The notes: a model not told the origin generated them from the letters alone. A stretch of 64,000 nucleotides of DNA from an uncultured Gemmatimonadaceae bacterium (GCA_963740355.1 CAVUDW010000003.1:352001-416000); one strand, 5' to 3'. Positions 16,817 through 49,370 are shown, counted from the stretch's first letter. Program-made: numbers and translations.

Positions 16817-16979
16817 CCGGTGACAGTGCACGATTTCGAAATCCGGTGACAGTGCACGGTTTAACCGGACAAAAACCGGTGACAGTGCACAGTTTCGAAA
16901 TCCGGTGACAGTGCACGGTTTCGAAATCCGGTGACAGTGCACGGTTTCCCCGTTTTCGAATTGTGTGCACTGTCACCGG
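16817..16979. repeat. Tandem cluster of the REP-like 15-mer CCGGTGACAGTGCAC: five direct copies and one inverted copy
   Basis: Direct copies at 16817, 16843, 16876, 16902, 16928 (periods 26/33/26/26); inverted copy at 16965-16979; degenerate GTCACCGGTTTGGGC tail to about 17006. Confidence 0.95.
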
Positions 16980-20712: not shown

Positions 20713-20755
20713 CCGGTGACAGTGCACTCATTTCCGAAATCCGGTGACAGTGCAC
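20713..20755 (+). repeat. Two direct REP-like 15-mers
   Basis: CCGGTGACAGTGCAC at 20713 and 20741, each followed by TCA; between convergent genes. Confidence 0.95.
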
Positions 20756-20783
20756 TCAATGCAAAGCTGCTGCGCCGAGACGT

Positions 20784-21286: not shown

Positions 21287-21301
21287 CCGGTGACAGTGCA
21301 C
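21287..21301 (+). repeat. REP-like 15-mer (direct)
   Basis: Exact CCGGTGACAGTGCAC between the marR and osmC genes. Confidence 0.95.
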
Positions 21302-21405
21302 ACAATGGCTATCCACCGCGCCGCGGAGTGGATTCAGGCGTACCCGGCCGGCTGGCCGCTCCCCGCCACTCTGCACCCGAATTCACGCGCGCTCCGTCAG
21401 CCGAA

Positions 21406-21933: not shown

Positions 21934-22312
21934 GTGTTTCCGCAGTCCGACCAAAGTAGACGACGCGTTTCCCAAGGAACGAGACCATGTACCCCGCACA
22001 CCCTGCCGCCCGCACCTTCGTGTTGAATCCCGCATAGGAGTAGCCGGGTGCGTTGGTTTGCGCCTCACGCACCGCCTCCTGGATCGCAGTGACGTCGAAG
22101 GTGGCGGCGATCGGTCTCGCCGGTGTCGGCATCGCCAGTTGGACGCTGTCGCCGCTCGCACTGAAGTACGTGGCGGTCCCGCGACGATAGTCCACGTCAT
22201 ACCCCTCGAAGCCGGCGCTGATTAGCGTGCCGACGATCGCAGGAAAGGTCATCGGGCCGCCGTAGGCCGCATCGAGGCACCTCTGCGCGACCGCGGTCAG
22301 ATCCTCGGGCAT
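21911..22312 (-). CDS. DUF1398 family protein
   Basis: RBS GGGGAGG; MTFPAIVGTL..GFEGYDVDYR, AGCAGYMVSFLGKRVVYFGRTAETHVEHFP. Confidence 0.85.
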   Translation of the reverse strand: MPEDLTAVAQRCLDAAYGGPMTFPAIVGTLISAGFEGYDVDYRRGTATYFSASGDSVQLAMPTPARPIAATFDVTAIQEAVREAQTNAPGYSYAGFNTKVRAAGCAGYMVSFLGKRVVYFGRTAETHVEHFPQ

Positions 22313-22409
22313 CTCAGCTCGTCCTCCCCAGTGTGTGACTATTCGCGTTTCGAACCGACAACCCAAATATAGTTGCCTAGTCACTCATGTGAAGGCCTTG
22401 TCGTTGAAA

Positions 22410-22465
22410 TCCGGTGACAGTGCACTCATTGCGTAATTCGGTGACACAACCCGGTGACAGTGCAC
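22410..22465 (+). repeat. Left REP-like cluster flanking the transposase (two full direct copies and one partial)
   Basis: Copies at 22411 and 22451, partial CGGTGACA at about 22439. The transposase stop codon (22466-22468) abuts the second copy. Confidence 0.95.
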
Positions 22466-23140
22466 TCATTCGCCGACCGGCGCGCGAAGCGGCCTGCGCC
22501 CCGGCCTCCCGGGCCGCAAGCGACGCCTCGTCTGCGACTCCAACTGCGCCACGAACTCGGCCGACCCCGCCGGCCGACCGATCGTTTCACCGGCGCGGAT
22601 CCGTCGCAGGCGATCCTCATCGCCTGCCTCGCCCAGGTACGCCCGCATGTCGTCAATTCGCGCACGCATCAGATCGGGCTCCGTAAGGCCGTCGCCTGTG
22701 TGCGCCAGATAGGCGCGGGCGCTCGACCATCGCCACGCCAATGCCGTCCGTACGAGATTCGCGCGCACGGGATTGAGCAGGACGTACCGCAGCGCCTCGT
22801 AGAGATGCGGATCATCCATCGGTACCGACCCGTAACGCCCCTGCCAGAAGTGTCCCGTGACACCTCGGCTGCTGTTGAGGCAGCCGGCGTACGTGCGATG
22901 CACGGCGGACAGTGTGCGCCGCAACCCATCCTCGCACGCAGGCACGAGGATCAGGTGCGCGTGATTGGGCATGAGGCAATACGCGAGGCAGCGCACACGC
23001 GCCTCGGAACACGCCTCGCAGAGGAGGCGCAGGTACAGCGCGTAGTCTCCCGCTGAGAAGAACACCTGCTGCCGCCCATTGCCACGTTGCGTGACGTGAT
23101 GGGCGACACCGGGGATGACGAGGCGGGCAAGGCGAGCCAT
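22466..23140 (-). mobile_element. HUH/Y1 tyrosine transposase (RAYT / TnpA-REP-like, IS200/IS605 superfamily), no tnpB
   Basis: MARLAR..HHVTQRGN, YCLMPNHAHL (HUH), GHFWQGRY, LRYVLLNPVRA (catalytic Tyr), WRWSS; flanked by inverted repeat clusters. Confidence 0.93.
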
Positions 23141-23230
23141 ATGACGTATGGTGTGGGCACGAAACGCCGCCTTGCGGCAGCACGTGGCACCATCCTAAGA
23201 CGACTCGCCGCCCGCGACCTACCCAATTCT

Positions 23231-23275
23231 GTGCACTGTCACCGGTTTACACGCAATGAGTGCACTGTCACCGGA
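23231..23275 (-). repeat. Right REP-like cluster flanking the transposase (two inverted copies)
   Basis: GTGCACTGTCACCGG at 23231 and 23260; 23251-23275 is the exact reverse complement of 22410-22434 (25 bp). Confidence 0.95.
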
Positions 23276-23276
23276 A

Positions 23277-23762
23277 TTAGGGCTTCCGTGGCGCGGGGGC
23301 CGGTGCCGGCGCGCTGCCCGACGTGCGACCAGTGTTCGGCGAGGTGCCGGCGTTAGGCTTCGGCAACGGCTTGCCCGTGATCGGACGTTCGACACCCTGC
23401 ACCGTCCGTCGCTCGACTTCGAGATCGTCGAGATCATCGTCACCACCTGCGCGCGCCGTGCCGCCGCCGGTATTCGGCGAGACGCCGGCACCTGATTTCA
23501 CCGGCGGCCTGCCGGAGGTCGTCGGTGTGTTGACGCCCTGTACCGTGCGCTTCGTGCCAACATAGATGTCGTCCTCCGTCTGCGTGCCCGGGCCAGTCGT
23601 GGCGCGCGTGTTCACCGGCGGTTTGGTGGTCGGCGCATTCGGGGTGATGGTCTTGGGCGCCGTCTTGGGAGTCGGTGCCGGTGGCGCCGACTGCGCGAAG
23701 ACCGAGGCACTCGTCAGCATGACGGCGCAGACGACGGCGGACAGGCGACTGAAGCGTTGCAT
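23277..23762 (-). CDS. Exported Pro/Thr/Gly-rich protein with an internal duplication
   Basis: RBS GAGGAG; signal peptide (SVFA-Q); two DD..RTVQGV..G.P..K..AG.SPNTG units. Confidence 0.75.
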   Translation of the reverse strand: MQRFSRLSAVVCAVMLTSASVFAQSAPPAPTPKTAPKTITPNAPTTKPPVNTRATTGPGTQTEDDIYVGTKRTVQGVNTPTTSGRPPVKSGAGVSPNTGGGTARAGGDDDLDDLEVERRTVQGVERPITGKPLPKPNAGTSPNTGRTSGSAPAPAPAPRKP

Positions 23763-23829: not shown

Positions 23830-25227
23830 TTATCGCACACGAACCATGTGCAGCGTGATCCCCGCACCCGGTTCGTCCAGCACCAGGTTGAGCACCCGCC
23901 CGCCGCGGATGCCTTCGAACGACGCGTGAAACCGACGCGTCCGCCCCTGAAAATTGTTGCCGAACGCGATCGTCCAGTTGTCGACCACGGAGAAATTCCC
24001 CCGGTACGACACGTTCTGGCTGCGGATGCTGCCGACCATTCCAGTCGCACTGGCCACATCCATCTGATACGATGCGCCGGTGAACGACACGGTGGTGTTG
24101 CCACCGGCGTACATCATCCCTGCCGCACGGCCCGTCGCCGCATACACCATGCTCGTGCCCGAAGCGAAATTGTCGCTCCACGTACCGACGAAATCCCTCG
24201 GCGACACCGCGAACCTGTTGCGTCCGGCCATCGCGACCCATCGATCCCATGCCGTCTCGTTCTGCCGGTACGGCCCGAACTCTCGCTCGAACGTCGCCTT
24301 GTCTGGCGTCGCGAACTCCATCCAGTGTGTGTTCCTGTTCGGGTGACTGAACAGCACGACGTACATCCTGCGACCGGTCTCGATGTCGGTGGCCGTTCCC
24401 GCCGCGTAGTTGATCGGTTCGTAGCCGCCAGGGTTATTCCGCTCGACAACGAAGTCCGTCAGGTCACGGTACCGCGGCGCCACCAGCAGATTCCAGAACA
24501 GCGTCGTCTGCTCGGCAAGCACGGACATGTACGCCTTCTCTTCTTCGCGCGCGTAGTGCAGCACCACCCGCAGGTCTCCCTTCGTGACCTTCGTGTAGCT
24601 CTCCCCGATGACACTCGTCCACCCGTCGTCGAAATTCGTCGTGCTGAAGGCAAAGGCGCCCGGCGCAGTTTCCGCCGAGGCAGCGTTCTCCGTGACAGGC
24701 GCAGGCGTACTCGCCACCGCTGGCGGGGTTGCAGGAACGTTCGCGCCCGCTGCCGCTGGCTCGACCGCGGCAACGGCCGTCACCGGCCCCGATGGAGTCG
24801 CTGCTGCTGCGACCGTGACCGAGCGCTGCGAGATCTCGGCAGTGTAGAGCCAGCGATCCTTCTTGCCCGTCACGAACGACAGCAGCACGGACGATGCTCC
24901 GTCCTTGTCGGCGATGCCTGTCGTCGAGTCACGCGCACTCATCGTGACGGTCCAGCCGGAGCGCTGCACCGACGCGATGATCTCCGTCGTGGGTGGCGCG
25001 CTGAGTGAGAGCCGAAACACCTCGAGACGAGGACCGAGCTTCACTCCCTCACGCACCGCATCGAGCTTCAGAGACTCGCGGGCTGTTGCACGGTAGAGAA
25101 AGTTCGCGCTCACCGACGTGCCGTCGGGCAATCCCGTCCCGAGTAATGCCGACGTCACCGATGCGGCAGCCTGCGCGAAGCAGACGGCTGGGACCAGCAG
25201 CATTGCGAGGCCTGCACTGAACTTCAC
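23830..25227 (-). CDS. Exported two-domain hypothetical protein
   Basis: RBS AGGAG before GTG 25227; signal-like N-terminus; Pro/Ala linker; beta-rich C-terminal domain. Confidence 0.7.
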   Translation of the reverse strand: MKFSAGLAMLLVPAVCFAQAAASVTSALLGTGLPDGTSVSANFLYRATARESLKLDAVREGVKLGPRLEVFRLSLSAPPTTEIIASVQRSGWTVTMSARDSTTGIADKDGASSVLLSFVTGKKDRWLYTAEISQRSVTVAAAATPSGPVTAVAAVEPAAAGANVPATPPAVASTPAPVTENAASAETAPGAFAFSTTNFDDGWTSVIGESYTKVTKGDLRVVLHYAREEEKAYMSVLAEQTTLFWNLLVAPRYRDLTDFVVERNNPGGYEPINYAAGTATDIETGRRMYVVLFSHPNRNTHWMEFATPDKATFEREFGPYRQNETAWDRWVAMAGRNRFAVSPRDFVGTWSDNFASGTSMVYAATGRAAGMMYAGGNTTVSFTGASYQMDVASATGMVGSIRSQNVSYRGNFSVVDNWTIAFGNNFQGRTRRFHASFEGIRGGRVLNLVLDEPGAGITLHMVRVR

Positions 25228-25366
25228 GCCTTGACTCCTGCAAATGGTGATCGACCCGCATCCTCGGGCGTGCCACAAGATCTTCCAACATCTGGCGTAT
25301 TTCTGCGGGTTGCACGCACCCGCAACCGCGAGGTGCACTGGTAGCGTGCCCCGTTCAGTCATCGCT

Positions 25367-27748
25367 TCAGTAGGGCATCCACATGAATGCGTTCGCAAGT
25401 CCGGTGAAGGCCACGAACATTCCCGAAGCACGAGCGCCTGGGTCGTATTGATTGTTCGAACCGAACGCCACGTACGCACCGGTCCGCGAGATCGACACGC
25501 CGCTTGGTGAGTTGTTGGTCATCGTCGTCACGGGACGCGTTTCCCCGGTGATGTTGTTGTGCATGAAGATGTTGCCTTCAGGTGCGCCGAGGTTCTTCGC
25601 GGCGGACGCGAAGGCCACCCACTCGCCGCTCGAAGAAAGTGCGAGTCGGCCACCCTGCTCGACCGGCGAATCACCATTCGCCTCGGCGCCAGACGAGGTG
25701 ACACTGGCCCGCTGCACACGCCCGCTGCGCAGGTCCACGACGAACACATCCTGCAGTCCATTTGCATCGCCCGGCACGAGATTCGTCGCCGTGGTGGCAA
25801 ACGCGACGACGTTGCCATCGCCTGAGATCGCCGGCGCGACTTCGCGGCTCGCACTTTCGTTGCCCTGGTTACGCTCTCCACCCGCAGAGGTCCGACTGAC
25901 GCGTGAGAGGCCGCCCGTACTCTGATCGAAGACGAAGATGTCCCAGAGGCCATTCCTGTCACCGGTGACGAGGTCGGCGGAGAAACTCTGGAATGCGATC
26001 CGCGCGCCGTCCTCGGAGATGGACGGCTTCGAGCCACCCACTGCGCTGCCTTTGACACCGCGTGTCACGAGTGTCGTCTGCTTGGCTTGCAGGTCGCGCC
26101 GATAGACGTTCGGCGTGCTGACGCCAACCACGCCAGGCGTGAGATTGCTCGCGCTGCTGGTGAACGCGACCACGCGACCATCGCCCGATACCGTGGGTTC
26201 GTACGAGTCCGCGTTCCCCTCGACGCCGCCACTGCCGATGCTGATTCGGGTGACTGAAGTGGGGAGCAAGCCATTGGCGGCGGACCACACGAACACATCA
26301 CGCACCTTGTTGCCGTCACCCGGCACGAGGTTGGTGGCATGCGACTCGAAGGCCACTGTCAGGCCGTCAGCTGAAATCGACGGAGCGAAGCTGTCAGCGT
26401 CACCCGGTGTGCCATCGGCGGCGGCGCTGAGCAACTGCGTGTTGCCGGTGAGGCGGTCGCGCCAGTAGACCTGCCGCGCCTTCACCGGCCGATCGACCAG
26501 CCCACTCGCACCCGACATGAACGCCACGAATCGCCCCTCGCCGAAGCCGGCGAACGTGCTCCCTACCGGATCAGCAGCCCCGCCGACGACCGCATCCTTG
26601 CTCTCGTAGAACGTCGCACGCACGGTGCCGGCTGAATTCGTGCTGATGTGTTCGAACCGCGTCTCACAGCCCACGCGCAGACCGGGCTGTCCCTGCGGCA
26701 TGATGCCGATCGCACCTTGGTATGCCACACAGGTCACGTTGCTCCCGACTGGTGTCGCGGTGACGGTGTACGGCGTGCCATTTGCTCGCGGAGGCGCAAA
26801 GGTGAAGCTCTGCTCGTTGTAGCGATCAGTTCCACCGATGAAGACTGGCACCGTGACGGTCAGCGGCACGCCGCTGCCATTCACCGTCAAGGCCGCGCGT
26901 GCACCGACTGGTCCACGCAGGATGCCGCCGAGCGGGGAGGTGCCGCCCGCTCGCGGCCCGATGGTGACCGGGAGTCGCGTACGCGGCGGGATCAGCGTGC
27001 CTGAGCCACGGCCGCCAGTCGGCGCTGTTCCAGGCCCGGGTTCGGCGCCCGCTCCGACCACAGGCGGTGGCGCGGCGGCGGTGCAATTCGCTGTGACATA
27101 GATGTCTGAGTAGGCGCGGATGACGAGCGTGTCACCGACCGACTTCACCGCCCACGGCTCGGCAGCGGTGATGGGACAGGTTCGCCCCGCCGGGCTGCCG
27201 GCGCGCCAGACTCGCACCGTGCTGGCCGCGTCGATCATGCGAGTGAACCCGCCCTGGCGAGTTGGCGCGGTCACGTCGATCGGATCGGCGCCATCCATGC
27301 CGAAGCGGACAGTTTCGCCGTCGGCCGTGCCAAACGCGCGCACGATCACGCTAAACGTCGAGGGCACGTCCTTGCAGTCGGCGAATACGACCAGCGAGCT
27401 GCCAGTGGCGGTCCCGGTCTGGTTGGACAATCGGCAGGTGCGTGGGCCGGCGGTCTGCGTCACGGAATACGCCATCCCGCGCGGGACGGGCTGCGCGAAC
27501 GACTTCGGGTTTTCGTAAGTCAGCCCCGTCCACGACCCCGCGGCGTACACCACCTGCTGGCTGCCAAGTGTGAACGTGAACGCATCGTCCATCGAGCGGC
27601 CAGCGACGAGCACGGAGATCGTGGTGCCGGCGAGGGTCTGGGTTGCACCGTTCCGGGGCGGGAGGGTCTGCTGTGCCCTCAGGAGGAGGGGCATGGCGGC
27701 GACGAGCGTCGCCCCCGAACAGGCCAGCGCACGGAAGGATCGAGTCAT
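25367..27748 (-). CDS. Exported protein with TolB-like/PD40 beta-propeller and Ig-like repeats
   Basis: Signal peptide; repeated PSISADG..VAF.S.A.NLVPGD.N..RDVFV blades. Confidence 0.88.
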   Translation of the reverse strand: MTRSFRALACSGATLVAAMPLLLRAQQTLPPRNGATQTLAGTTISVLVAGRSMDDAFTFTLGSQQVVYAAGSWTGLTYENPKSFAQPVPRGMAYSVTQTAGPRTCRLSNQTGTATGSSLVVFADCKDVPSTFSVIVRAFGTADGETVRFGMDGADPIDVTAPTRQGGFTRMIDAASTVRVWRAGSPAGRTCPITAAEPWAVKSVGDTLVIRAYSDIYVTANCTAAAPPPVVGAGAEPGPGTAPTGGRGSGTLIPPRTRLPVTIGPRAGGTSPLGGILRGPVGARAALTVNGSGVPLTVTVPVFIGGTDRYNEQSFTFAPPRANGTPYTVTATPVGSNVTCVAYQGAIGIMPQGQPGLRVGCETRFEHISTNSAGTVRATFYESKDAVVGGAADPVGSTFAGFGEGRFVAFMSGASGLVDRPVKARQVYWRDRLTGNTQLLSAAADGTPGDADSFAPSISADGLTVAFESHATNLVPGDGNKVRDVFVWSAANGLLPTSVTRISIGSGGVEGNADSYEPTVSGDGRVVAFTSSASNLTPGVVGVSTPNVYRRDLQAKQTTLVTRGVKGSAVGGSKPSISEDGARIAFQSFSADLVTGDRNGLWDIFVFDQSTGGLSRVSRTSAGGERNQGNESASREVAPAISGDGNVVAFATTATNLVPGDANGLQDVFVVDLRSGRVQRASVTSSGAEANGDSPVEQGGRLALSSSGEWVAFASAAKNLGAPEGNIFMHNNITGETRPVTTMTNNSPSGVSISRTGAYVAFGSNNQYDPGARASGMFVAFTGLANAFMWMPY

Positions 27749-27919
27749 GACGTGGTAGCGGAGATGGGAGACATCCACCAACGTCAGACGTCAGGGTCCG
27801 GCAAACATTCTCAGCCGTCGGGCGGGCGGCGTTCCGAGGCGTGCCGCGTCCCGGCGACGCGCAGGGCGATCGCACGTCGCCGGGCGGTTGCGAATGGCGA
27901 GATCCCGGACGTTGAATCA

Positions 27920-27933
27920 GTGCACTGTCACCG
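27920..27933 (-). repeat. REP-like repeat (inverted, 14/15 match)
   Basis: GTGCACTGTCACCG(A), 30 nt past the stop codon at 27964. Confidence 0.9.
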
Positions 27934-27963
27934 AATTCCCGGACTTCCGGCAGTGAGATAGCG

Positions 27964-28810: not shown

Positions 28811-28900
28811 CCGGTGACAGTGCACTCATTGCAGGCCAATGCCCGTGCGCCTTCGCCGCGCCGTGATCGTCCTGAGGGGATATCTGTGCACTGTCACCGG
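28811..28900. repeat. Inverted REP doublet (REPIN-like)
   Basis: Direct copy 28811-28825 and inverted copy 28886-28900 with a 60-nt spacer. Confidence 0.93.
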
Positions 28901-49309: not shown

Positions 49310-49355
49310 GGCGGCAGCGCAGGTGGAAGGCCGTCAACGGCGCGCGACAGAATGG

Positions 49356-49370
49356 GTGCACTGTCACCGG
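49356..49370 (-). repeat. Isolated REP-like 15-mer (inverted)
   Basis: Exact GTGCACTGTCACCGG upstream of arsR. Confidence 0.92.

Follow-up and report, generated by a model that had tools for sequence, protein, structure and literature searches.

The Y1 transposase gene and its flanking inverted repeats in the 64,000-nucleotide stretch of an uncultured Gemmatimonadaceae genome analyzed here (hereafter, the window) very probably constitute a TIRtron, i.e. a single-copy TIRYT-type gene (TnpA-Y1 subclass 2.1, or Bertels group 1) with its cognate 25-nt terminal inverted repeat (TIR) standing convergently on both sides, the repeat itself having spread extragenically. This architecture has been in print since 2013, when Di Nocera (PMC3733652) described RAYT-like genes that are associated with long inverted repeats instead of GTAG REPs and named the elements TIRtrons and the enzymes TIRYTs, for TIR-associated tyrosine transposases. 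According to Quentin 2018 (PMC6006769), most TIRYTs belong to TnpA-Y1 subclass 2.1, which equals Bertels group 1. What is new here is a repeat-rich, well-preserved member in an under-studied lineage. An earlier note on this DNA, made from the sequence by itself, had proposed a distinct new class of enzyme and repeat specificity; that proposal is unsupported, as the element matches the TIRtron/TIRYT description and its repeat carries the GGGGWSAS motif of that class.

The outer arms of the element are identical. The 25-nt sequence TCCGGTGACAGTGCACTCATTGCGT at positions 22410–22434 (plus strand) is exactly inverted at 23251–23275 (minus strand), just as the earlier note had stated, and in a repeat search the inverted pair could be extended to 28 nt at 96% identity. 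The second copy that had been reported on each side is also there: the inner left copy (22451–22470, plus strand) matches the outer right arm perfectly over 20 nt, and the inner right copy (23226–23250, minus strand) has a core at 23231–23248, 18 nt long at 94% identity, with 15 nt of these exact. A third piece of the repeat, a truncated 5′ module (AATTCGGTGACAC; 22435–22447, plus strand), lies between the two left copies. The space between the repeats is filled by a sole open reading frame on the minus strand (22466–23140, stop included), which is intact and encodes a HUH/Y1 tyrosine transposase-like protein of 224 aa. Its TGA stop had been thought to be supplied by a TCA following the repeat; instead, the stop (22466–22468, read on the minus strand) falls within the inner left copy, where it is the TCA of ...GTGCACTCATT, and this copy also contains 2 nt of the last sense codon. 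The mini-palindromes CCGG and GTGCAC are both present in the 25-nt repeat, and GT[AG]G is absent from the repeat and from its complement, in agreement with the original remark that the GTAG/GGAG foot of classical REPs is missing.

The repeat is not confined to the borders of the gene. In the 64-kb window there are 17 matches to a 20-nt core (≤3 mismatches) versus 0.00 expected from 100 shuffles. Gene-less copies are found as an array of five plus-strand copies and one minus-strand copy (16817–16979), two tandem copies (20713–20760, plus strand), a convergent pair (28811–28900, with a plus-strand copy at 28811–28830 and a minus-strand copy at 28881–28900) and single copies at 21287–21306 (plus strand, downstream of a MarR gene), 27915–27934 (minus strand) and 49351–49370 (minus strand). 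The neighbours of the Y1 gene encode an OsmC-like protein, a MarR regulator and three proteins that match no Pfam family, and tnpB is not among them. The description of the element as REPtron-like and tnpB-less is thus borne out, its inverted repeats being amplified genome-wide. The first right-hand neighbour (23277–23762, minus strand) is a 161-aa Pro/Thr/Ala-rich protein with an N-terminal hydrophobic stretch and the second (23830–25479, minus strand) is a 549-aa protein, neither with a Pfam match; relatives of both are present in two other genomes, G019 and G015. Scans of 22300–23400 returned one promoter-like site, on the side of the neighbouring gene, and no terminator-like site.

The 224-aa protein is matched by Pfam Y1_Tnp (E 9.4e-8). 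A phmmer search of the PDB with the single sequence gave no match, and a family profile made from the query and 42 representatives (43 sequences) found E. coli TnpAREP (4er8) at 4.8e-10 and then ISDra2 TnpA at 2.3e-4. The same ranking was obtained from structure: for the AF2 model (pLDDT 94.5) the top Foldseek match was 4er8_A (E 5.9e-9, TM 0.74 on the target, 160 aligned columns), followed by ISDra2/IS608 TnpA. The histidines of the HUH motif N59-H60-A61-H62 (NHAH; 22955–22966, minus strand) are nearly invariant; H60, H62 and Y119 are each retained in ≥90% of the 43 family sequences. Tyr119 (codon 22784–22786, minus strand) lies within YVLLNP, a form of the class 2 TnpA-Y1 motif Y---NP, and is presumed to be catalytic, based on the alignment and the motif table of PMC6006769. 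The family consensus reads NHVH, WQ, YVExNP and WxWSS over a length of ~220–235 aa, and the query has NHAH, WQ, YVLLNP and WSS, with Ala rather than V/Y/F as the middle residue of the HUH motif. Homologues are abundant: of 8,000 scored candidates, 7,607 proteins reach E ≤1e-5, and at E ≤0.001 the query matches 32,554 representative clusters. The closest named homologue, at 63% identity, comes from a Gemmatimonadaceae MAG.

These features suggest membership of subclass 2.1, an assignment that we draw from motifs and length and not from a tree with the Quentin reference sequences. For this subclass, Table 1 of PMC6006769 gives NHVH or NH[YF]H, W[EQ], YIELNP or Y[IV]HLNP, an SS tail and a median length of 238 aa. 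The window protein and its family share with it the Y---NP, NHxH and WQ motifs, the SS tail, a length of ~224–238 aa, a low gene copy number and a broad, patchy taxonomy. The C-terminal extension of subclass 2.1 is described as resembling HTH domains (Bac_DnaA_C, HTH_23, HTH_28) and as heterogeneous in group 2.1.2 (PMC6006769). In contrast, residues 141–224 of the window protein match no Pfam family at E values up to 10, Bac_DnaA_C and HTH families included, the HTH not being a strict criterion of the subclass; the tail carries a conserved TGRPLG...GRP motif.

The repeat forms a large population in the genome. Counted with ≤1 mismatch, its 13-nt core GGTGACAGTGCAC occurs 150 times in the 5.45-Mb assembly (119 copies are exact) versus 4 times for a reversed control pattern, and the conserved unit around it, (G)AAATCCGGTGACAGTGCACTCATT, is ~25 nt long and also describes the outer left TIR of the window. 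The 150 copies are arranged in 73 clusters, comprising singlets, tandem arrays and convergent doublets, and adjacent copies form 33 convergent pairs (mostly 28–31 nt start to start), 2 divergent pairs and 42 tandem pairs. The repeat is mostly extragenic: of the 119 exact copies, 95 are located outside crude gene calls, which take up 84.6% of the genome, 19 are inside and 5 are partly inside. The one-mismatch copies found inside genes (21 of 31) are probably chance matches. Exact copies are also clumped, with 33 of 119 in C2:1.60–1.70 Mb and 20 of 119 in C3:350–450 kb, around the Y1 gene, a region that includes the window. The hot region at C2:1.63–1.69 Mb holds ordinary accessory genes (an ECF sigma factor, peptidases, kinases and histidine kinases), and no mobile-element genes were recognized in it.

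Single repeat units fold no better than shuffled sequences (z scores of +0.47, −0.62 and +0.50). When 28 close convergent pairs were folded, a long hairpin formed in all but one (−14.6 kcal/mol), with energies mostly of −20 to −40 kcal/mol and, typically, a stem of 26–29 bp closed by a loop of 3–4 nt. The two arms of these hairpins vary together from locus to locus. By analogy with E. coli TnpAREP and the TnpA proteins of IS200/IS605, the enzyme would have single-stranded DNA as its target, such as that at replication forks, with H60 and H62 holding a metal ion and Tyr119 cutting and rejoining one strand at the repeat through a 5′-phosphotyrosine link. Gene-less repeat units would then be moved or copied by the enzyme in trans. 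Because a lone unit does not fold by itself, the doublet with its hairpin of ~26–29 bp is the likelier substrate; two arms paired across the gene would be an alternative.

Elsewhere in the genus, orthologues of the protein at 60–68% identity are encoded in 8 other genomes. The earlier note had staked its reading on close homologues carrying the flanking motif, and they do: at 9 of 9 full-length orthologue loci the core, or its variants ...GCAT or GGGG..., stands convergently on both flanks, and the motif recurs at 55 of 72 more distant loci (see below). For the 19 other genomes of the genus the core totals run from 9 to 183 and, in the majority, exceed the control; 21 genomes from outside the genus have 0 to 15. 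Within the genus, totals are 32–183 in genomes with a full-length orthologue and 9–75 in those lacking one, which is only a loose trend, many of the assemblies being fragmented. G016, another genome of the genus (94% complete, 10 contigs), has 75 copies of the core and no family member detectable by profile search, so that its repeats are either orphans left after gene loss or accompanied by a gene in the unassembled part.

The possibility that each gene copy maintains its own repeat variant was considered in G010, where two copies of the gene are flanked by minor variants of the repeat (16 and 10 copies) and the dominant variant (94 copies) is that of the window genome. Because the variant populations do not correspond to the gene copies, a fine-scale matching of gene and repeat is unsupported, and we have rejected it.

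At a coarser scale, a second gene–repeat pair is found in the same genome. Besides the one copy of the Y1 gene, with no near-identical second copy, the genome has one paralogue, at 34% identity, which lies outside the window at G000:C2:1530310–1530978 (locus L032). It is located between convergent arrays of a different repeat, GATCAAGGGGTCAGAGATCTTGATCGG, with periods of 71 and 25 nt. This repeat, also given as GATCAAGGGGTCAGAGATCTTGATC, is present in 202 copies versus 0 for its control. Arms related to it flank the relatives of the paralogue at 7 of 12 other loci of the genus.

The surroundings of the gene are poorly conserved. The five flanking proteins of the window were found beside none of 16 related loci, and among 10 orthologous loci that were compared, similarity between flanks was seen in 1 pair; no instance of movement, no empty site and no insertion polymorphism was found at the compared related loci. 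The left neighbours of the window are present in another genome, G017, but beside a different gene. Because the flanks are unconserved in this way, and those in G017 adjoin a different gene, the boundary of a mobile unit cannot be read from these comparisons.

Such a lack of shared neighbours would be expected if the element were an autonomous insertion sequence, in which the entire TIR–gene–TIR unit is mobile and the gene-less doublets are MITE-like deletion derivatives, instead of a domesticated, stationary gene; the synteny argument is weakened, however, by the many fragmented MAGs with short flanks. Two alphaproteobacterial genomes (G044 and G045) point in the same direction, in that at two or three places convergent cores are spaced by ~670–950 nt, possibly as additional gene-bearing copies, and group 1 genes have been reported on plasmids, with possibly more horizontal transfer (Bertels 2017, PMC5581495). 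Against this explanation, the genome under study has one copy of the gene plus a distant paralogue with a different repeat, the gene-less repeats outnumber the Y1 gene by more than 100 to 1, and the orthologues found within the genus group together in a single clade (100*). On balance we regard an autonomous insertion sequence as unlikely, and we retain the reading of a TIRtron whose gene is single-copy and whose repeats have spread apart from it.

The resemblance to described TIRtrons extends to several details. Like them, the element consists of a RAYT-like HUH/Y1 gene with flanking inverted repeats that are not GTAG-tagged palindromes, the repeat overlaps the 3′ end of the gene, as can happen in TIRtrons, and repeats are amplified as singles, dimers and groups, as is seen in part of the TIRtron genomes. 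According to Di Nocera (PMC3733652), TIRs share the motif GGGGWSAS, which is true of part of the class, and some TIRs form moderately abundant families, as dimers or clusters. In the window repeat the motif is present as GGTGACAG, which agrees at 7 of 8 positions, the third base being T, not G; all 8 positions agree in the repeat at an orthologue locus (L049; GGGGACAG) and in the core of the paralogue repeat (GGGGTCAG). The genome has 150 and 202 copies of its two repeats, numbers that are high for the class, with no claim that they exceed its richest case. The large population also departs from the published picture of subclass 2.1 and group 1, for which PMC6006769 gives 'REP: no' and PMC5581495 reports that the 16-mers flanking group 1 genes occur only about 12 times per replicon. 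Gemmatimonad hosts are not mentioned in the accessible text of PMC3733652, and two supplements of PMC6006769 have no 'Gemmatimon' entry. Our literature search likewise returned no work on RAYT, REPIN or TIRtron elements in the Gemmatimonad lineage.

The earlier note had measured the element against IS200/IS605, correctly remarking that those elements lack terminal inverted repeats, which the window element has. The yardstick itself was ill chosen, however, because the protein is nearer to TnpAREP, both by profile and by Foldseek. With IS200/IS605 TnpA (IS608, ISDra2; subclass 1.1) it shares the core HUH/Y1 fold, but it has Y---NP in place of Y---Q, and the element has no subterminal hairpins, no tnpB and no multi-copy gene. 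The comparison with E. coli TnpAREP (RayT) is closer: besides being the best profile and fold match, it is encoded by a single-copy gene between extragenically amplified inverted repeats, and the chemistry of cutting and rejoining a single strand is presumably common to both. Nevertheless, E. coli TnpAREP requires a hairpin REP preceded by GTAG, and the window repeat has neither, and the 224-aa protein is ~60 aa longer at its C terminus, where it bears the TGRPLG...GRP tail.

These same comparisons bear on whether the element could be a canonical REP/REPIN-RAYT system (in the broad sense subclasses 2.2/2.4/2.5/2.7/2.8 and Bertels groups 2/3), in particular one like those of E. coli or Pseudomonas (subclasses 2.2/2.5), whose REP has simply diverged. 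A single-copy gene, a high-copy extragenic repeat with convergent doublets, and TnpAREP as the best structural match are all features that such a system would show. However, besides the missing GT[AG]G and the single unit that forms no hairpin, the protein scores 60.7 bits with the NCBIfam model REP_Tyr_transpos (NF047646), under its cut-off of 80, phmmer with the single sequence finds no PDB entry, and the protein agrees in length and in its HUH, Y and tail motifs with subclass 2.1 rather than 2.2 or 2.5. A divergent canonical system is therefore very improbable, and assignment to the TIRYTs of subclass 2.1 is preferred.

The pairing of gene and repeat reaches far beyond the genus. We compared 80 homologue loci (L061–L140) at 43–57% identity, most of them from Alphaproteobacteria and the remainder from Acidobacteriaceae, Planctomycetota, Armatimonadota, Thermodesulfobacteriota, Actinomycetota and other groups; 72 of the 80 have flanks of ≥200 nt on either side. 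The hexamer G[GT]GACA is present on both flanks in convergent orientation at 55 of the 72 loci and in divergent orientation at 6. For the stricter octamer GG[GT]G[AT][CG]A[CG], these numbers are 40 and 4 of 72, and none of 56 distal control windows has it in convergent orientation. The arm consensus across the family, approximately GAATTnCGG(G/T)GACA(G/C)TnTACTnAnT, is fitted by the window repeat at its conserved positions, and loci of the Rhizobiales type carry AATTACGGTGACAGTGCACTTAATT, a 25-mer almost the same as that of the window. Five alphaproteobacterial genomes with nearly the same repeat contain from 2 to 38 copies of it. In the two already mentioned, G044 and G045 (reached through L063 and L093), the nearly identical repeat is found 38 and 19 times, respectively, with doublets ~59 nt apart.

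When 100 proteins were placed in a quick maximum-likelihood tree, repeats of the GACAGTGCA form fell in a single starred clade (96*) of 23 rows, made up of the 10 rows of the genus (100*) and 13 alphaproteobacterial rows (97*), and this label requires 3 changes on the tree compared with 19.3 in shuffles. Since relatives share labels, this result represents clustering and not independent co-evolution, and since the tree is unrooted, no donor lineage can be named. Were the repeats elements of the host, for instance sites bound by a protein or terminator-like hairpins, spread by some other route and standing around the gene by accident, this would account for intergenic doublets with strong hairpins and for the 75 copies kept by G016 with no detectable gene, but it is scarcely credible given that the convergent pairing recurs across many phyla and again for a second paralogue with its own repeat, and that the repeat variant tracks the protein clade.

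Within the repeat, conservation is uneven, and it looks to be built from two parts: a 5′ module, GAAATCCGG(T/G)GACA(G/C), that is conserved across phyla, and a clade-dependent 3′ module, which in this genome is TGCACTCATT. In this genome, 24 truncated 5′ modules abut a full copy, with 19 of the 24 breaking after ...GACA or ...GACAG, and lone 3′ halves are rare (4 of 75). The same stutter is seen at 19 of the 80 loci of other phyla, where 21 of 44 cases (setting aside an unrelated tandem repeat in L121) restart 0–3 nt after G[GT]GACA. It is suggestive only that the truncated modules mark a point of cleavage or strand transfer, as replication slippage could give the same pattern. As a tentative model from these alignments, to which we would assign a modest chance, enzymes of subclass 2.1 might recognize a two-module site with a nearly fixed 5′ part, GAAWTNCGG(G/T)GACA(G/C), and a clade-dependent 3′ part, and might cut or transfer directly 3′ of the octamer GG(G/T)GACA(G/C). 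If true, this would be the first cleavage-site model for subclass 2.1 (group 1), the largest group of RAYT-like proteins, and it would explain how REPIN-like populations arise without a hairpin REP or a GTAG guide. The available text of Messing 2012 (PMC3479197) and Corneloup 2021 (PMC8266576) concerns the biochemistry of GTAG-REP enzymes only, and our literature search returned no biochemistry for any subclass 2.1 enzyme.

To a specialist the element itself will be unsurprising; what stands out is the copy number of its repeat and the second paralogue with a 202-copy family. With two paralogues that have their own repeat families (150 and 202 copies), doublet hairpins and a 5′ half that is shared across phyla, the genome and its genus offer a natural study system, and a source of enzyme–substrate pairs for asking how DNA is recognized without a hairpin REP and a GTAG guide. 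A minor observation concerns the single repeat copy at 21287–21306: the matching place in G017 (L143:2468–2510) has a convergent doublet where the window has one copy. The repeat site downstream of the MarR gene thus seems, from this alignment, to have been kept across species, although G017 is without an orthologue of the Y1 gene.
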